Shown: in pieces, positions 2,591 through 46,099 of the stretch
Position numbering within the stretch: the stretch's first letter is position 1
Layout of the letters: every line of letters begins with the position of its first letter
Assembly: GCA_964468545.1 (NCBI GenBank)
Contig: CAYXTT010000001.1
Location: forward strand, 1,894-65,893
DNA from: Candidatus Woesearchaeota archaeon
GTDB taxonomy: Archaea > Nanobdellota > Nanobdellia > Pacearchaeales > GW2011-AR1
DNA length: 64,000 nt
Direction: 5' to 3'
The notes under the pieces: generated by a model
The model's database searches: none
Seen by the model: the letters and a program-made list of their open reading frames with translations, nothing else
What the model was told of the DNA's origin: nothing
Program-made: the position numbers and the translations under genes

Positions 2591-3823
2591 TTAATAATAT
2601 GAAGTTTCTACTTCTTCAATTGGCTTTTCCTTCCGTGTAAGAAGAACAACCAAAACAATAAGGAGAACAACAAAGACAATTACAAGAACTACCGTCAAAG
2701 CAACAACCGAAGTCGAAACACTTTTGCCGACGACGTTCGCGCCAAAAACAGTTTGTTCACCGTTAACGCCCACAGAAAAAGTATAAGTTCCAATCTCAGC
2801 ATCATCTGCCGCAGTCACGCTAATAACAACGCTCTCGCTCGAATCAGGGCCAACAGTAACTACTGAGGGAACTGAAACACTTAAGACATTGCCAGAAACG
2901 GACTCTATATTGAAAACCTTAATGCTATCCGCAGAATTAACAATAACCAAATCATAAGTCACTGTCTCTCCAGCATTCAAATCCTTATTCTTCGCAGCAG
3001 CCAAAACCATAGTCGAAGCCGAATCGCCAACACTAATTAACTTAGTGGCAATCGCCTCAGCATCGTAGTTGTAAGCCCTAATTTCAAGTTCATAAACGCC
3101 ACCCTTGGCATTATCAGGAACTCTCAAAGGAACAACTATCTCCATGGAATCTTCGTCGTCACAATTGCTCACAACAACATTATCGTAACCATCTTCAGAC
3201 AAGATACAATCTTCCGTAGGAATCAAATCCCCAACATACCCTCGCGAAGAAATCGCCAAGGCCGGAATCGAAACCTGGACATAAACATCGTCCAATCTGT
3301 CATAACCATTATTCTTAACAACAACAGAAATCGGAACAACATCGCCAGCCGAAACCCTCGAAGAATAATCAACAGTCAAAACTTTAATAGTATAAGATTC
3401 TCTCTGCATACTAACAGTATACTTCTGCTCCGTTCTCTTATCCTTAGAAACAATCTCAACATAAAGAGTATATTCCTCAGACAATTCGTCAGAATCAGAA
3501 GGTAACTTCAAGCTTAAAAGTTTGGTATAAACATTGCCACCTTCAACATCAAACCTGTCAGTCGAAGCGGAAACATCCTCACGATAACCTTCCATAGAAA
3601 CCTTGACTCTCACATCGCTCTCATCGCCGCAAGCCCGAAATGTTACTCGCACAGGAACAACATCGCCGACATTACCAACCATTGTGGTCGAAGCCCCCAG
3701 CCCAACGCTATTAAATTCTACAGCGACGTCATTAGCAAGACCAGCCGAAGCAAAACTCAAAACCATCAGAGTTAGAACTGCAACAAAAGGAATTAAAAGC
3801 AAATTTCTTTTCATTTTTTCCAT
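2591..3823 (-). CDS. Surface or secreted protein with an N-terminal signal peptide and a C-terminal transmembrane anchor. Ser/Val-rich, with a beta-rich CARDB-like repeat character.
   Basis: The N-terminus MEKMKRNLLLIPFVAVLTLMVLSFASA is hydrophobic. The C-terminus VVALTVVLVIVFVVLLIVLVVLLTRKEK is a transmembrane segment followed by basic residues. Confidence 0.5.
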   Translation of the reverse strand: MEKMKRNLLLIPFVAVLTLMVLSFASAGLANDVAVEFNSVGLGASTTMVGNVGDVVPVRVTFRACGDESDVRVKVSMEGYREDVSASTDRFDVEGGNVYTKLLSLKLPSDSDELSEEYTLYVEIVSKDKRTEQKYTVSMQRESYTIKVLTVDYSSRVSAGDVVPISVVVKNNGYDRLDDVYVQVSIPALAISSRGYVGDLIPTEDCILSEDGYDNVVVSNCDDEDSMEIVVPLRVPDNAKGGVYELEIRAYNYDAEAIATKLISVGDSASTMVLAAAKNKDLNAGETVTYDLVIVNSADSIKVFNIESVSGNVLSVSVPSVVTVGPDSSESVVISVTAADDAEIGTYTFSVGVNGEQTVFGANVVGKSVSTSVVALTVVLVIVFVVLLIVLVVLLTRKEKPIEEVETSYY

Positions 3824-3936
3824 CCTAATTTAGTTAAACACTCAACAAATAAAAGCTATTTAAACCTTAGCATTGTTGTAATTTTAAAAGGACAAAAAGA
3901 TTTAAATAGTATACCATCGTATACCGAATATCGTAA

Positions 3937-4218
3937 ATGAGAGTAACAAAAATGGCAATTAAAAAAATAACAGAAAAAATCACAACCATAAAACTTCTGG
4001 AAGAAACAAAACTCCGAATCGAAAAACTCCGACAAAACAAAGGCGAATCCTACGACGACATTCTTAGAAAAATCCTCTACATCTTAAACACCGCGCGAGA
4101 CGAACCCGACAAAGCAAAACGAATTCTCGAAAAAATTTCCGAACTCCGACAACGAATGCTCGACGAGGAAAAACAACAGGAAGAAGATCTGAAAAAAGAA
4201 AACGGAAGAGAAGAGTAA
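3937..4218 (+). CDS. Small ribbon-helix-helix-like DNA-binding protein.
   Basis: 93 aa. TIKLLEETKLRIEKL...GESYDDILRKIL fits the strand-helix-helix pattern. It has a charged C-terminal tail. Confidence 0.35.
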   Translation: MRVTKMAIKKITEKITTIKLLEETKLRIEKLRQNKGESYDDILRKILYILNTARDEPDKAKRILEKISELRQRMLDEEKQQEEDLKKENGREE

Positions 4219-4485
4219 TGGACGAAGAACTTAATAGACGAAGAACTTAATGAAAAAATAACAGACAGAATAGATTCAGCAATAGCCAGAGCCCATCAAT
4301 TCTTACAAAGCTGCACCATCGAAGAATTAGTTAAAGAATCTATCAAATTAGGAGCAGCAAAAGAAAAATTAGAAACCATCAAAGAATACTTTGTGCCAAG
4401 ATTGTACGAAGAATTAAAAACAAAAATCAGCATCCTTGAAAAAAAATACCTCATAGAAGCACAATACCAAGATCGACAAAGATAA
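4218..4485 (+). pseudogene. Small hypothetical ORF disrupted by a 16-bp tandem duplication.
   Basis: ATG at 4218 overlaps the upstream stop (TAATG). The duplication GACGAAGAACTTAAT(A) at 4222-4252 shifts the frame; MDEELNRRRT* then terminates. Without one copy, a clean about 83-aa ORF reads through to the TAA at 4483-4485. Confidence 0.45.
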
Positions 4486-18409: not shown

Positions 18410-18593
18410 ACCATAGAATTCATTTTATTAGACTGTCCATATAGACAAATTTCTCGCTGACCCTTCATTTTATCTTCCTCTCTAATAATTGTCCTATTAA
18501 ATGGAGCACCGACGATATACTCAACACTCACAAGCGTATCATACCTTCCATTAAAACCATCCTTATTATCTCTTAACCATCTCAACTCCCATA

Positions 18594-18730
18594 AAAAATC
18601 CGTGTTAGTCCGTGTTAGTCTATGTGCTATTTTTTCTCCAGTTACACAAGTCACACCAAGCAACCCAAGTCGTGCGACAAGCGACAAGCGACAAGCGACA
18701 AGCGCAATGAAATTTCTCTGAAATTTCATC
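18594..18730 (+). repeat. Composite repeat element A in the S12-S7 spacer. It has a CGTGTTAGTC decamer block, an AGTTACACAAG segment, (GCGACAA)x4 and the hairpin ATGAAATTTC-tct-GAAATTTCAT.
   Basis: Tandem repeats and the inverted repeat are read directly. It shares its architecture and partial sequence with element B at 23433-23565. Confidence 0.8.
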
Positions 18731-23416: not shown

Positions 23417-23432
23417 CTTACCGCCCCCAAAC

Positions 23433-23565
23433 AAAATCCGTGTTCGTCCATGTTAGTCCGTGTACCATTATTTCCAAAACTATAAGTTACATCAAGTTGC
23501 CCAACTCCTCCGAATGCCGAATGCCGAATGCCGAATGCCGCGAATGAAATTTCCGATTTCATTCG
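23433..23565 (+). repeat. Composite repeat element B in the rpoB-rpoA spacer. It has the decamer block AAAATCCGTGTTCGTCCATGTTAGTCCGTGT, an AAGTTACATCAAGTTGCCC segment, (CCGAATG)x3.5 and the hairpin GAATGAAAT-ttccg-ATTTCATTC.
   Basis: Seen in the sequence. The 3' hairpin arm overlaps the last two rpoB codons. Confidence 0.8.
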
Positions 23566-42745: not shown

Positions 42746-43948
42746 TTACACAACGACCTTATCCAAATACCCAACCTCGTCCTCGCTCAACTTCAATTCT
42801 TTTCTAATCGTCTCATTCCCCAATATAATTCTCAACAACAAAAAATCCCGCATCGCCGTCTTCGTAGAAATATGAACCAACTTCGCATACTTCTGACAAA
42901 TCGATTTCTTTTTCGCCGACCTCTGATTCTGCAACCAAATTTTCAAAATCCTCGACGGCTTCTTATAACTCGTCCACCCAACCCTGTCATAATTCTTCAC
43001 CCCAGCAATCCCCGCCCCCAGCAAAAAATATTCATAAACCATAAATCTCCAATGCCTCTGACGACGAATCCGCCCGCGAAAAACATCCGCCAAACTCAAC
43101 GCCCGAATCGCCCGACACAATTCCTCACCCTTGTACGCAATCGGCAAATTCTCCTCAACCCACAAAAATACATCATCAATCGGCATCCCAACCTCGTCGT
43201 AAATCCTCAACATCTCGTCGTCAATTTTCGCACTCTGAAAAACATGTTGCAACGCGCCAAAAATCGACTGCTCCCTATTCCTTTCCCCAACCTCCCGCGC
43301 CAACTCCGGCGAATCCATCCTCGCCAAAATCTGCAAATCATTCAACGCTGCCCGAATATCCCCCCGCGCCCGAATCGCAATCGAAGTCAAAACCTCCGAC
43401 GACACAACACAATTCTCCTTCTCGCAAACATTCTTTAAAACCCCCAACACAACCTTATAATCAACTTCCTTCAACACCACCAACTCCGCCTTCTTTCTCA
43501 ACAAACTAAACTTCTTATCCCAAATATCATTCGCCGTCACAATCACCGGAAACGCCGACCTCTCCAACAAAACCAACAGCTCGCCAAGCCCGCCCCTATC
43601 CTTCACCGCCGCAATCCCATCAACCTCATCAACCAAAATAATTTTCCCCTTCCCAAACAAACTCTTCTGCCTCGACGCTGGTCCAATAATTTCATAAATC
43701 TTTTCCTTATTCCTCAAATCCGACGCATTCAACTCCAAAATTTCAGCATCCATCTCAAACGCAATCGCATAAGCCAAAGACGTTTTGCCAACCCCAGCCG
43801 GCCCATGCAAAACCACTGCCCTCTTCCTCGGAAAACTTTTCAAAAAAACCTTAATCCTATCAATCGCCAAGTCCTGCCCCCGCACATCAGCAAAACATTT
43901 AGCCCGATACTTCTCACACCACGGAATATTCTCCTTATTTATCATCAT
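42746..43948 (-). CDS. rfcL: Replication factor C large subunit.
   Basis: IPWCEKYRAKCFADVRGQ, Walker A GPAGVGKTS and DEVD. Confidence 0.85.
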   Translation of the reverse strand: MMINKENIPWCEKYRAKCFADVRGQDLAIDRIKVFLKSFPRKRAVVLHGPAGVGKTSLAYAIAFEMDAEILELNASDLRNKEKIYEIIGPASRQKSLFGKGKIILVDEVDGIAAVKDRGGLGELLVLLERSAFPVIVTANDIWDKKFSLLRKKAELVVLKEVDYKVVLGVLKNVCEKENCVVSSEVLTSIAIRARGDIRAALNDLQILARMDSPELAREVGERNREQSIFGALQHVFQSAKIDDEMLRIYDEVGMPIDDVFLWVEENLPIAYKGEELCRAIRALSLADVFRGRIRRQRHWRFMVYEYFLLGAGIAGVKNYDRVGWTSYKKPSRILKIWLQNQRSAKKKSICQKYAKLVHISTKTAMRDFLLLRIILGNETIRKELKLSEDEVGYLDKVVV

Positions 43949-44514
43949 TCAAAATCCTCCAATCTCAACTTAACAAAACGAGAACAAACATCCAATAAAT
44001 GATTACTTAAAGAAAACGGGCTCCCTCTCTTCTTATCAAAATAGGTATACAAAATAATTTCAATTCCATCTTTCTCCTGAACCTCTCTAACAATAGGAGC
44101 AAAATCCGAATCTGAAGAAACCAAAATAATTTTTTTCACTTCGGGAAAATCCAACTTCAACCTAGCTAAATCAAAAACAACCCAAGAATCAACACCCTTC
44201 TGAGAATACTTATAATCTCCATCAACCTTCAACCTCTGACACCTACCCTCCTGCACAGTTATCCACTTCTTATAACCAAATAAAGAAACCAACTTATCAT
44301 ACTCCCTCCTCAAAAAATCCTCTTTCCTCGTCGGAACCTTACTCTGATAAGGAGGAGCTGTGCAAAAAAACAAATGCTTCAATTTAAAATTTTCATTCTC
44401 ACAAATATTCCTAAACGACTTCAACAACTTCACTCTCTTATTATTTTTTTCCCGAAATTCTCTTTTTACCAACTTATAGAAACCATCATCAATAATAACT
44501 ACGCAATCCTCCAT
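43945..44514 (-). CDS. NYN-domain (LabA/PIN-like) putative ribonuclease. It is inserted between the rfc genes.
   Basis: VVIIDDGF...ILVSSDSDFAPIVREVQEKDGIEIIL matches the NYN pattern. Its stop overlaps the rfcL ATG (ATGA). Confidence 0.7.
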   Translation of the reverse strand: MEDCVVIIDDGFYKLVKREFREKNNKRVKLLKSFRNICENENFKLKHLFFCTAPPYQSKVPTRKEDFLRREYDKLVSLFGYKKWITVQEGRCQRLKVDGDYKYSQKGVDSWVVFDLARLKLDFPEVKKIILVSSDSDFAPIVREVQEKDGIEIILYTYFDKKRGSPFSLSNHLLDVCSRFVKLRLEDFE

Positions 44515-44622
44515 CTAAAAACCCCCCAACAAACATAAGAAAAAAAACATCTGGCAACCCGAAGATCACCAGGGAATATACTCCTAATATTACTACTAGT
44601 AACACAGCAAACATCTTCACCT

Positions 44623-44763
44623 TTATAAATTTTCCTGTCCATTAAACATCCTCCGCAAAAAAATCTTAACCTTGTCAACCGCCAAATCCTGTCCACGCAC
44701 ATCCGCAAAACAACCCGCCCGATATTTCTCACACCACGGCACATTATCCATATTCATCATCAT
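44623..44763 (-). pseudogene. Truncated duplicate of the rfcL 5' end (MMMNMDNVPWCEKYRAGCFADVRGQDLAVDKVKIFLRRMFNGQENL*).
   Basis: About 80% nucleotide identity to 43860-43948. It ends in a stop after 46 codons. It keeps the ancestral ATGA overlap with the upstream gene's stop. Confidence 0.55.
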
Positions 44764-45101
44764 ATCTTCTCCAGCCCGTCAAAATGAACCAACCTATCAT
44801 TTAAATCATAAACTTCAACAACCTCAAAACCTCCCTTCGTCCAAACATCGCCATCCTTCAAAAAATGCATCGCCTCAATAATCTTAACACTCGCCAAAGT
44901 CTTCGATAAAACACCGCCACCCTTCGTCTCCCTCAACGGAATTTCTCCAAAAAACCAATAATGCTTTTGTCCTAACTTTAAAAAACCATATCTCTTCCCA
45001 ACTTCCAATTTCTCAGGCAAACACTCATTAATCCCTCGTCCCTCAGTTCCAAACTTCCTCAATGCTAAATCCGGACAATACTCAACAACAATTCCCATCA
45101 C
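44760..45101 (-). CDS. Hypothetical protein encoded between rfcS and rfcL.
   Basis: 113 aa. Translationally coupled, with 4-nt overlaps to rfcS and to the rfcL fragment. Confidence 0.45.
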   Translation of the reverse strand: MMGIVVEYCPDLALRKFGTEGRGINECLPEKLEVGKRYGFLKLGQKHYWFFGEIPLRETKGGGVLSKTLASVKIIEAMHFLKDGDVWTKGGFEVVEVYDLNDRLVHFDGLEKI

Positions 45102-46099
45102 TCACCCTCCTCCTTTGTTCCACAAACACAACCCTCCCCCGCCAAAATAAAACTCGCAATCAAACTCTCAAGTTGAATAAATTCGTCCGCACCCTCGACC
45201 AAACGAAACTCCGCCTCACCCGTCTTCTCAGTCAACCTCACCTTCAACGCATTATCAATCGGCAAATTCCAAACCTCCTTCTGAATCGCCTTAATCACAT
45301 CCTGCCCCGAAATCGATTCCTTCAACATAATATCCAACAACTTATCCCGCGAACTCACAAAATCCCCCGACAAAGCATAATCCAAAACAACCTTGATATC
45401 CGATGGCTTCGCCTTCGAAACAATCGTATTCACCAAATCCGGAGTAATGTTCGGCGAAATCGAAGCAGTCGCCTGTAACAAATTAATCACCCGACGACAA
45501 TCCCCCTCGCTCGCTTCATACAACGCATCAAACGCACCAGCCGAAATCGACAGCCCCTCGCTCTCCGCAATCAAATCAATCCTCTTCTTAATGTCCTTCT
45601 TCTCCAACAACTGAAACCTAAACACAACCGCCCTCGACTGAATCGGATCCAAAATCTTCGACGAATAATTACAACTCATTACAAACCGGCAAGTCGAAGT
45701 AAAATTCTCCATCGTCCTCCTCAAAGCTTGCTGCGCCTCTCTCGTCAACGCATCCGCCTCATCCAAAAAAATAACCTTAAACGGCACATTCCCCAATGCC
45801 TTCGTCCTCGCGAAATCCTTAACCTTCTGCCGCACAACATCAATCCCCCGCTCGTCCGACGCATTCAACTCCAAATAATTCTCACGCCAACTCTCACCAA
45901 AAAGTGTCTTCACAATTATCAAAGCCAAAGTCGACTTCCCCGTCCCCGCCGGCCCCGCAAAAAGCAAATGAGGAATATTCATAGAATTCACCAACGCCCG
46001 CACCCTCTTGATAATCTCCTCCTGCCCAACCATGTCATCAAAACGCCGCGGCCGATATTTCTCCGTCCACACCTCAGACCCATAATGCTCCATCAACAA
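45098..46099 (-). CDS. rfcS: Replication factor C small subunit.
   Basis: EKYRPRRFDDMVGQ, GPAGTGKST, DEADAL and the SRC motif region. Confidence 0.9.
   Translation of the reverse strand: MLMEHYGSEVWTEKYRPRRFDDMVGQEEIIKRVRALVNSMNIPHLLFAGPAGTGKSTLALIIVKTLFGESWRENYLELNASDERGIDVVRQKVKDFARTKALGNVPFKVIFLDEADALTREAQQALRRTMENFTSTCRFVMSCNYSSKILDPIQSRAVVFRFQLLEKKDIKKRIDLIAESEGLSISAGAFDALYEASEGDCRRVINLLQATASISPNITPDLVNTIVSKAKPSDIKVVLDYALSGDFVSSRDKLLDIMLKESISGQDVIKAIQKEVWNLPIDNALKVRLTEKTGEAEFRLVEGADEFIQLESLIASFILAGEGCVCGTKEEGE

Follow-up and report, generated by a model that had tools for sequence, protein, structure and literature searches.

The locus lies in a window of 64,000 nt (the whole stretch of DNA analysed) from a Candidatus Woesearchaeota archaeon, and holds an archaeal replication factor C (RFC) pair, adjacent same-strand rfcS (Rep_fac_C) and rfcL (AAA+ with an RFC1/5 lid) genes, with a cassette of ~710 bp (43945-44655) standing at the start of rfcL. 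The rfcS gene, a 113-aa ORF (X113), a 46-codon ORF, an NYN-domain nuclease gene and rfcL are all encoded on the minus strand, and the features are as follows.

42746-43948, minus strand: rfcL, replication factor C large subunit, 400 aa, intact (from Pfam).
43841-43948, minus strand: downstream, functional copy of the repeat, the intact rfcL 5' end (from repeat alignment).
43945-44514, minus strand: NYN/LabA-like nuclease gene, 189 aa (from Pfam and predicted fold).
44536-44606, minus strand: conserved leader RNA, 71 nt (from covariance model R1).
44622-44655, minus strand: left junction of the cassette and promoter, comprising filler, an A-rich BRE-like stretch and a TATA box.
44623-44763, minus strand: 46-codon ORF holding the displaced rfcL 5' end.
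44656-44763, minus strand: displaced (upstream) copy of the rfcL 5' end, codons 1-36, 82% identical in nucleotides to 43841-43948.
44760-45101, minus strand: 113-aa ORF (X113), predicted all-beta.
45098-46099, minus strand: rfcS, replication factor C small subunit, 333 aa, the upstream flank of a variable spacer.

The rfcS product matches Rep_fac_C (E 3.8e-18) and AAA (E 1.2e-15) in Pfam and shares 70-94% aa identity with the product of the gene upstream of rfcL at related loci, while RfcL matches AAA and an RCF1-5-like lid and is 47-86% identical to its counterparts at 80 related loci. The start of X113 overlaps the rfcS stop, and the X113 TGA overlaps the ATG of the rfcL fragment, so that the fragment does keep the overlap with the preceding gene described for it in a preliminary description of this DNA. 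The same description placed the NYN stop over the rfcL start, and the TGA at 43947-43945 indeed overlaps the ATG at 43948-43946. The NYN gene has no 3' UTR; a GGAGGA within its final codons (..LEDFE*), at 43955-43960, lies 6 nt ahead of the rfcL ATG and thus doubles as a Shine-Dalgarno (SD) sequence for rfcL, and the SD of NYN itself is a G-run at 44522-44527. Compact genomes often have genes that overlap by 4-8 nt, and tight coupling is therefore weak evidence when taken alone.

The rfcS-rfcL pair is present in 75 of 80 related loci. Between the two genes lies anything from 1 to 2175 nt, and many unrelated genes occur in this spacer. True homologues of X113 occur in only 4-5 of the 80 (L037, L051, L080, L167 and L202, these labels denoting the related loci or lineages compared with the window's organism), and the conserved rfcS-(small ORF)-rfcL operon assumed earlier is thus not borne out; the spacer is instead a hotspot of gene turnover. 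X113 has no match in Pfam, NCBIfam or PADLOC, its 160 homologues are all unnamed hypothetical proteins, and its AlphaFold2 (AF2) model (pLDDT 93.5) has no significant match in the PDB. The gene goes with rfcS and not with NYN. Among side observations on the spacer, X113 is fused to a NUDIX domain in L037, nucleotide-pool ‘house-cleaning’ genes gather here beside the clamp loader, and the L167 spacer holds a Y1_Tnp fragment outside the cassette.

The two copies of the rfcL 5' end (43841-43948 and 44656-44763) align over 108 nt at 82% identity without gaps and at a spacing of 815 (blastn E ~3e-28), confirming the imperfect direct repeats of about 100 bp first noticed on either side of NYN. The pair is the top and sole long local direct repeat of the 64-kb window. 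At the protein level, the upstream copy is 73% identical to the N-terminus of its own RfcL over 37 aa (E 1.7e-20), in agreement with the homology first proposed. The duplication had been given as 46 codons, which is the length of the fragment's ORF; homology to rfcL is limited to the first 36 of these codons, and the remainder of the ORF ends inside the TATA box of the cassette. The fragment had also been called decayed, which is too simple, since it is common to the window's organism and lineage L167 and is 88-90% identical in nucleotides to the rfcL 5' ends of L167, L001 and L002; it resembles the functional 5' ends of the relatives (~90%) about as closely as the functional rfcL 5' copy does (84-86%). 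At the level of sequence, these data show that the cassette entered within the first 110-130 nt of rfcL, leaving the native 5' end behind upstream and a full start after the cassette, and the proposed insertion with duplication of the target junction is thereby upheld. We also considered whether the functional rfcL 5' end was derived from a donor together with NYN, which found no support, as the mismatches are evenly spread along the repeat (5/8/6). A mosaic pattern pointing to flank co-conversion was looked for in the rfcL repeat and none was seen, and a ‘NIPW’ variant considered as a donor mark is common among lineages lacking NYN and so is not diagnostic.

The protein encoded by the cassette was correctly described as NYN/LabA-like. 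It scores 35.4 bits against Pfam PF01936 (cut-off 24.2) over residues 96-183, just its C-terminal half aligning with the model, and PF01936 is carried by all of its homologues. The AF2 model (pLDDT 92.9) has the same three-layer alpha/beta fold as the NYN/LabA-like nucleases of the PIN superfamily, and its best Foldseek match is the LabA-like 2qip (VPA0982; E 3.5e-9, TM 0.59/0.68), with a further match to the NYN domain of MARF1 (5yaa/6fdl; E 9e-6). D9, D109, D135 and D137 are invariant across 47 homologues and would correspond to the catalytic metal-site positions, an equivalence drawn from conservation rather than superposition. Compared with known NYN, LabA and MARF1 proteins, the 189-aa protein belongs to a subfamily specific to DPANN that lacks a fused RNA-binding domain, and its gene is always preceded by a dedicated structured RNA. 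The protein has no match in NCBIfam, and the PADLOC defence models gave a single insignificant one (PDLC01154 ‘NYN’, E 0.0025, over 23 residues). No relatives were found among viral contigs, and literature searches turned up no report that connects NYN with Pacearchaeota, Woesearchaeota or DPANN, nor any that ties DUF88 to an RNA motif.

Reading from the upstream end, the cassette consists of an archaeal promoter, a 71-nt RNA of two hairpins with a terminator-like hairpin and U-run, the SD and NYN, the stop of which overlaps the start of the following gene. The left junction contains ~26 nt of filler, which may represent more rfcL sequence in degraded form, together with the A-rich BRE-like stretch and a TATA box (TTTATAAA, 44622-44629), the position of which is conserved in 73 aligned regions upstream of NYN. 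In the RNA, hairpin 1 pairs 44594-44599 with 44584-44589 around a GUAA loop, a linker with an invariant AU...CCC follows, and hairpin 2 pairs 44564-44572 with 44551-44559 around a UUCG loop and includes three conserved G-U pairs; a U8 run at 44540-44547 comes after it, and the two together were flagged as terminator-like. Covariance model R1 scores 78.5 bits here (E 2.5e-15), the only credible copy in the window. In the alignment, 99.3% of cells are paired and 10 of 15 pairs show double-sided changes, values reached by none of 500 shuffles, while the single-sequence fold energy is no better than that of shuffles (z -0.11). The conserved G-U pairs establish that the transcribed RNA strand is the sense strand of NYN, and conservation of the stem in sequence as well as in structure suggests recognition by a protein. 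A small hydrophobic peptide (ORF 44489-44620) was considered in place of an RNA and rejected, as Leu/Pro swaps restore base pairs and the G-U pairs are kept. The covariance model upheld none of thirteen exact-pattern matches to the core of hairpin 2. Hairpin 2 with its GGAU tail may resemble helix 45 and the 3' tail of 16S rRNA.

Of 85 sources that carry NYN, 81 have the RNA immediately upstream of the gene, and the remaining four comprise one 5'-truncated match and three lacking upstream sequence. The distance between the two is 15-45 nt in essentially all loci. No R1 match was found in 814 kb of rfcL loci devoid of NYN, and Rfam 15 gave no relevant match either for the window region (E <= 10) or for 15 loci with consensus-like copies (E <= 5). 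The combined results strongly support a previously undescribed structured RNA tied to one nuclease family. It was missed when the locus was described as having no antitoxin-like partner, a statement that stands for proteins, as no conserved protein partner was found beside NYN and the neighbours differ from locus to locus on both sides. The leader RNA probably controls or partners the NYN RNase. Our preferred reading is that it may serve as an attenuator or an autoregulatory site bound or cut by NYN, and a partnership of type III toxin-antitoxin kind would be our second choice.

The same gene order is found in 14 contigs of separate JGI, ENA and Logan samples, and no cassette-less allele was found in that population. 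An assembly or binning artefact, in which the rfcL starts of two strains were wrongly joined on either side of foreign DNA, could account for repeat copies that differ by 18%, as two strains might; however, all 14 contigs, though sampled and assembled independently, share one layout, the same junction recurs in the divergent lineage L167-L170, and both flanks retain intact reading frames and overlaps, which leaves this explanation with next to no probability. L167 is a second species-level lineage with the same fragment/promoter junction, minus 39 nt, and carries a second duplicated fragment besides the NYN-linked one. Its NYN is 93% and its RfcL 84% identical to those of the window in amino acids, with a third-position difference of 21%, and the rfcL insertion is evidently old, dating from an ancestor shared by the two lineages.

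As to synteny in relatives, NYN is absent within 6 kb of rfcL at all 80 related species loci, which supports an insertion. The preliminary description held that NYN at the same place without duplication would speak against an insertion; such an arrangement exists in L082, L083 and L087, where NYN (79% aa identity) directly precedes rfcL, and the L167 junction carries the duplication. In neighbour-joining trees, which carry no support values, rfcL branches as (WIN,(L167,(L001,L002))), where WIN is the window's organism, and the NYN of L081 (85% aa identity), from a non-rfc context, is nested within the rfcL-linked NYN clade. L001, L002 and L202, with RfcL ~86% identical in amino acids, lack NYN, while the more distant L082 and L171 carry it.

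The NYN/RNA unit is not confined to rfcL. In other DPANN genomes of Pacearchaeota/Woesearchaeota type it stands before dozens of genes, unrelated to one another and for the most part of housekeeping function, including those for RFC-L, RtcB, PGK, TsaD, GluRS, proteasome, fibrillarin, a GatA-type amidase, HsdM and glycosyltransferases, and the gene that follows begins between -26 and +11 nt from the NYN stop in 36 of 56 loci. The search for duplicated junctions elsewhere, proposed as a check on the insertion, was successful, as direct repeats of 21 to ~300 nt bracket the cassette in 14 loci. The duplicated sequence comes from the flanking target, in most cases from the 5' end of the gene that follows, and in 9 of the 14 the downstream copy starts no more than 6 nt from the NYN stop. 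Given a background of 2.1 local direct repeats per 100 kb in control loci, the precise bracketing of a promoter-to-stop unit in 14 independent loci is far above expectation. The right end of the cassette is constant (the NYN stop codon) and the left end variable. At rtcB the same insertion site is used in two lineages, and each fragment resembles its local gene copy. A duplication scar of the same kind accompanies another gene, a 104-aa ORF, in L014 and L171, which suggests a generic mode of insertion in these genomes rather than a property of NYN.

Much of this distribution could be read as inheritance. NYN might be a vertically inherited housekeeping RNase with an autoregulatory leader, in genomes of poor DPANN synteny, and the rfcL duplication a one-off rearrangement. 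NYN proteins are 48-60% identical across many lineages and mostly single-copy per locus, like an ortholog set (L176 carries two divergent paralogs), and they diverge in step with the neighbouring rfcL and RtcB where both are known, so that much of NYN history is vertical. The variable content of the rfcS-rfcL spacer fits as well, and the RNA also precedes a distant LabA-like paralog, suggesting regulation over mobility. Nevertheless, housekeeping inheritance does not explain the 14 precisely bracketed loci, the lack of NYN in the closest rfcL relatives against its presence in more distant ones, or the placement of the L081 copy, and we consider it unlikely.

The explanation that we hold to be somewhat probable overall is that of a self-contained RNA+NYN cassette, recurrent at gene starts, moved by host recombination and partnered by its leader. 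The cassette is seen as wandering because the package recurs before many genes, often with the same duplication scar. It encodes NYN alone, with no transposase, integrase or recombinase, and no inverted repeats were found at its ends; duplications of 21 to ~300 nt and a variable left end are likewise not transposon-like. Spread would thus be by host recombination and not by transposition. A three-step cycle would be the most economical account, in which recombination between the two repeats may loop out a circle of the cassette plus one repeat, the circle may re-integrate by a single crossover at the homologous gene start of a related cell, and new sites may arise where SD/ATG-like and A-rich microhomologies permit illegitimate joining. 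Neither circles nor recent transposition events were seen. The cassette is presumably tolerated because it gives the downstream gene a promoter, an SD and translational coupling. DPANN archaea, with their tiny genomes, have poorly understood gene turnover and few known mobile elements. If confirmed, the cassette would represent a minimal form of gene mobility, in which a promoter-to-stop unit repeatedly enters the starts of essential genes harmlessly and without a recombinase of its own, and would account for the odd short ‘ORFs’ (gene-start fragments) annotated in these genomes. The 71-nt RNA is directly testable and offers a route to LabA/NYN function in prokaryotes.

A bolder proposal is that RNA+NYN is an autonomous, selfish, recombinase-free element of a new kind in DPANN archaea, one that actively drives its own entry into essential genes at their 5' ends and could persist as an addiction module. 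Insertion would proceed via nuclease action, possibly RNA-assisted, followed by host repair; the gene start would be rebuilt behind the cassette with a donated promoter and SD, and persistence could come from addiction to an RNA-neutralised RNase. We regard this as quite doubtful.

As an addiction or defence module, the locus would be akin to type III toxin-antitoxin systems, the RNA released at the U-run neutralising NYN and a patchy, selfish distribution following from this. The order of promoter, structured RNA, terminator-like hairpin and U-run, and RNase gene is that of ToxIN, CptIN and TenpIN. Two spaced RNA copies lie in tandem at L095, L108 and L133, some NYN copies adjoin MNT/HEPN pairs, type I R-M genes or Bro-N proteins, and presence among close relatives is patchy. 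Type III systems are built on a tandem direct-repeat RNA antitoxin and a ToxN/AbiQ-type toxin, whereas the present RNA is a single 71-nt unit (TRF found no tandem repeat array at the cassette), the NYN fold is unlike that of ToxN/AbiQ and the host is archaeal. Moreover, the PADLOC match is partial and insignificant, the neighbours are mostly housekeeping genes and viral contigs yielded no relative. Such a module is rather unlikely in our view. The adjacent, conserved small protein partner typical of type II toxin-antitoxin systems with PIN/VapC-like toxins is absent from the NYN loci.

Free-standing homing genes, such as seg/mob of phage T4, and fungal mitochondrial homing endonuclease genes (HEGs), which carry a duplicate of the displaced gene end, offer another parallel. 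NYN might itself be a mobility enzyme of homing-endonuclease kind that cuts cassette-free gene starts, possibly together with its RNA, with repair copying the cassette and duplicating the target end. Like homing genes, the cassette consists of a small nuclease gene equipped with expression signals of its own, lies between conserved genes (here with stop/start overlaps), is patchily distributed among close relatives and keeps host gene function via a duplicated gene end; presence/absence polymorphism is found, with NYN in the window's organism and L167 and its lack in L001, L002 and L202. The target-end duplication is recurrent, and the shared rtcB site, with fragments like the local gene copy, is in keeping with homing. 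NYN, however, does not belong to the LAGLIDADG, GIY-YIG, HNH, PD-(D/E)xK or EDxHD families, Pfam showing just NYN, and NYN domains are RNases, not known as DNA homing enzymes. No site common to the targets is evident, it is the 5' end that is duplicated, left end and repeat length vary, the same scar occurs with a non-nuclease gene in L014, and the rfcL repeat gives no sign of flank co-conversion. Homing by NYN is thus very improbable. A published partial exon duplication lies beside an intron-encoded LAGLIDADG ORF and not a free-standing HEG (PMC7902536).

Movement by host recombination, as preferred here, has its closest likeness in Campbell-type integration and homology-facilitated illegitimate recombination, where direct repeats of a stretch of host gene similarly enclose the insert, no element recombinase is needed and precise loss may occur via recombination between the repeats. 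It differs in that the cassette is one small gene with many targets and the circle is hypothetical, neither process being known to carry one particular small gene routinely to many targets. The leader RNA, in turn, is comparable to autoregulatory leaders such as those of ribosomal proteins and the archaeal L7Ae K-turn leader, with conserved hairpins likewise placed in cis on the enzyme's own transcript; in contrast to these, it is without an Rfam match and is coupled to a terminator-like U-run. Regnase-1, a PIN/NYN-like RNase, acts on a stem-loop in its own mRNA.

From rfcS to rfcL, the window carries five reading frames on one strand:

45098-46099, - strand, rfcS
44760-45101, - strand, X113, an ORF of 113 aa
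44623-44763, - strand, an ORF of 46 codons
43945-44514, - strand, the NYN gene, 189 aa
42746-43948, - strand, rfcL

The start of rfcL (43841-43948) is duplicated at 44656-44763 as an ungapped copy of 108 nt with 82% identity, offset by 815 nt, and this was the sole long local direct repeat in a scan of the 64-kb window. The displaced fragment still matches rfcL at the protein level (E 1.7e-20). Its ATG overlaps the stop codon of X113, just as the rfcL ATG overlaps that of NYN. An identical gene layout was found in 14 contigs from independent samples, which excludes an assembly artefact, and together these data confirm the preliminary description of a NYN gene lying between direct repeats of the rfcL 5' end. 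The encoded protein scores above the Pfam threshold, has four invariant aspartates and is predicted with high confidence to adopt the LabA/MARF1 NYN fold (pLDDT 92.9); on every sequence and fold criterion applied, the predicted protein belongs to the NYN family. GC skew is extreme and uniform over window 1-64000 (all 2-kb bins fall between -0.22 and -0.65 for the + strand; GC 0.34-0.45), with most genes on the strand that is strongly G-rich and C-poor; at + strand genes, for example at 40-42 kb and 54-56 kb, the skew is weaker yet still negative. A separate 49-nt direct repeat (18588-18636 vs 23426-23474, 82%, 4.8 kb between the copies) includes a short GTCCGTGTTA-like unit in tandem, has a gene boundary at both copies and may represent a common regulatory or leader element.

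The interrupted genes had been taken for a conserved rfcS-X-rfcL operon, which is overstated. Across 80 loci the gap between rfcS and rfcL varies from 1 to 2175 nt, and in this spacer true X113 homologs occur only in L037, L051, L080, L167 and L202, besides a weak one in L040. Spacer genes in the relatives (L001-L080, L082, L202), mostly on the same strand, encode MazG-like, Maf-like, NUDIX, HD, CYTH-like, cytidylyltransferase-like and small unknown proteins, and the content differs even among all the closest relatives. The spacer is thus a gene-turnover hotspot in which nucleotide 'house-cleaning' genes (MazG-like, Maf-like, NUDIX, HD, CYTH-like) recur. X113 belongs to a widespread family of ~113-aa proteins (160 homologs, all unnamed) that carries no Pfam domain; its model is confidently all-beta (pLDDT 93.5) and gave no significant PDB match. 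The overlap of its stop with the fragment ATG shows that X113 adjoined rfcL in the window lineage before the insertion. Between the window and L167, the locus with the closest NYN homolog, X113 is 57% identical, against 92-93% for the flanking rfcS and NYN genes, suggesting allele replacement or very fast evolution.

Alignment of the relatives' upstream regions showed that ~110 nt ahead of NYN travel with the gene. A TATA box (TTTATAAA, 44622-44629) comes first, followed ~22-28 nt later by hairpin 1 (6 bp and a tetraloop), an invariant AU...CCC linker, hairpin 2 (a 9-bp stem that includes three conserved G-U pairs, closed by a tetraloop), a stretch rich in U, and the SD and ATG. Over 49 distinct sequences, 99.3% of cells are paired, with two-sided changes at 10 of the 15 pairs; these values were reached by none of 500 shuffles, and slid controls collapsed. 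R1, a covariance model of the 71-nt leader RNA, found one credible copy in the window (44536-44606, - strand, 78.5 bits, E 2.5e-15). Of 85 sources with NYN, 81 have a copy immediately ahead of the gene, the others comprising one truncated hit and three sources that lack upstream sequence, while 814 kb of NYN-less rfcL loci contained none and Rfam gave no match. The partner that the preliminary description noted as missing is therefore an RNA. ORFs called over the leader (44489-44620, 44499-44744) were rejected as spurious. In L095, L108 and L133, two leader copies ~120-140 nt apart precede one NYN.

Hairpin 2 with its U8 run scored as terminator-like. The promoter-RNA-terminator-RNase layout, combined with a sequence-conserved, G-U-rich hairpin 2, points to a putative site of attenuation or autoregulation that NYN would recognise; a putative type III toxin-antitoxin-like partner is our second choice. 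Hairpin 2 recurs, in weaker form, ahead of a distant LabA-like paralog. As a lead only, hairpin 2 (44551-44572; tetraloop, then GGAU) bears a loose resemblance to helix 45 plus the 3' tail of 16S rRNA, and the GGUGAUC of its 5' arm would be complementary to 16S GAUCACC. A literature search returned no paper tying NYN to these archaea or describing the leader RNA.

The cassette (promoter, leader RNA, SD and NYN gene) recurs in ~80 further metagenome loci with NYN proteins 48-60% identical, co-oriented with its neighbours, and the next gene starts -26 to +11 nt from the NYN stop in 36 of 56 loci. The downstream genes are mutually unrelated (RtcB, phosphoglycerate kinase, TsaD, class I tRNA synthetase, cyclophilin, proteasome subunit, Hjc-like nuclease, Obg-like GTPase, fibrillarin, amidase, HsdM three times, glycosyltransferases), and the upstream genes are just as diverse. 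The duplicated junction also had counterparts elsewhere: when the 640 nt ahead of the cassette were compared with the 440 nt behind it, bracketing direct repeats emerged in 14 loci, including the following.

Direct repeats bracketing the cassette
L095, GT2 gene: 162 nt, 88%
L088, secreted protein: ~300 nt, mosaic
L151 and L160, RtcB, same codon in both: 52 nt and 38 nt, respectively
Other loci: 38, 36, 25, 22 and 21 nt

Where the downstream gene is on the same strand, the upstream copy begins at the start and SD of the target gene and ends 0-290 nt ahead of the TATA box; the downstream copy starts no more than 6 nt from the NYN stop in 9 of the 14 loci. In L130, by contrast, the repeat is the end of a convergent gene. 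Control loci held 17 such local direct repeats in 814 kb (2.1 per 100 kb), and chance bracketing is expected, roughly, at fewer than one locus. The conserved last NYN codons (..EDFE*) read GGAGGA, 6 nt ahead of the stop-overlapping ATG in window numbering, so the cassette supplies an SD to any following gene; these codons may be selected for the protein or for the SD.

In some contigs (L176, L094, L112, L115, L143) there are two NYN paralogs, both preceded by a separate copy of the leader RNA; both L176 paralogs (391-1052, 3686-4324) precede large secreted Laminin_G_3-type proteins. Cassettes in L084, L177, L104, L113, L134 and L136 adjoin nucleotidyltransferase/HEPN pairs, DUF3800, type I R-M (HsdM, HsdS-like) or Bro-N proteins, the last forming a cluster of 13 in upstream-neighbour clustering, and part of the NYN family may thus occupy a defence-island setting. 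In L153 (679-2703) fibrillarin directly follows the cassette, and since Pfam 'Nop' is among the upstream-neighbour hits overall, NYN may split a conserved Nop5-fibrillarin pair there.

A like scar, that is, a duplicated target piece bracketing an insert, surrounds a 104-aa ORF that interrupts rfcL 63 nt from its start, again with a 5'-end duplication and a stop/ATG overlap, in L014 (3264-3327 / 3655-3718) and L171 (1362-1424 / 1753). The L014 insert carries this ORF without NYN. Repeats in the control loci L032 (1518/1952), L069 (10094/10435) and L013 (4875/5289) may be similar scars. Since the scar also occurs around a non-NYN gene, the mechanism may be a general one in these genomes and NYN its commonest passenger.

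At rfcL itself, the synteny comparison bore out the expectation of relatives lacking the insert: across 80 species-representative loci, whose rfcL shows 47-86% aa identity, no NYN gene lies within 6 kb. The closest homologs of the NYN in the window are arranged as follows:

L167, NYN 93%: rfcS ... fragment 1 - two small ORFs - X113 - fragment 2 - cassette - rfcL
L171, NYN 80%: rfcS - NYN - 63-nt rfcL fragment - 104-aa ORF - rfcL
L082, L083, L087, NYN 79%: rfcS - four genes - cassette - rfcL, duplication absent
L081, NYN 85%: ahead of a large secreted protein, away from rfc

The fragment/promoter junction of L167 is that of the window, less a 39-nt deletion between short repeats, and the insertion is thus older than their split; their rfcL genes differ at 21% of third positions (84% aa identity). 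In NJ trees, which carry no support values, L167 rfcL groups with the NYN-less L001 and L002, and L081 NYN nests within the rfcL-linked clade. L202 (X113 84%, rfcL 86% aa identity) has the order X113-NUDIX-97aa-rfcL, with neither NYN nor an rfcL fragment in its rfcS-rfcL region. Such patchiness implies that NYN was repeatedly lost, transferred or relocated. The L167 spacer also contains an IS200/IS605-type Y1 transposase fragment and a second rfcL-start fragment (L167:2122-2355, 2601-2688); the latter has a 1-nt deletion, and behind it come a TATA-like box and two small ORFs. The arrangement looks like a cassette array with rfcL-start copies as separators.

A route of movement goes a step beyond the observed anatomy, RNA structure, shared old junction, patchy presence and scar recurrence. 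The cassette has no recombinase gene, inverted repeats, fixed-length target duplication or tandem array, and its movement would rely on recombination by the host. An exchange between the repeats would release the cassette plus one repeat as a circle and restore the gene precisely; the circle could then re-enter the homologous conserved gene start of a related cell by a single crossover, yielding fragment-cassette-gene again with the internal junction unchanged. This cycle would account for identical junctions in diverged lineages (the window and L167; L151 and L160), for the likeness of each fragment to its own locus's gene copy, and for the often conserved housekeeping neighbours and frequent loss. 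New target sites would require an illegitimate join. At right junctions the cassette end resembles the target SD-ATG region, and some left junctions lie in A-rich sequence by the TATA box; these positions fit microhomology joining, and selection could yield the same picture.

The original interpretation of an insertion with duplication is partly supported, and its conserved operon and missing partner need revision. Compared with known systems, the cassette fails the tests for type II toxin-antitoxin systems, PADLOC defence systems and transposons; it resembles type III toxin-antitoxin systems in architecture only, and homing endonuclease genes only in population pattern. As a whole it matches none of the families it resembles, and we regard it as a probable selfish or portable gene cassette joined with a putative cis-acting RNA leader, whose chief interest lies in the RNA-NYN unit and the recurrent gene-start scar.
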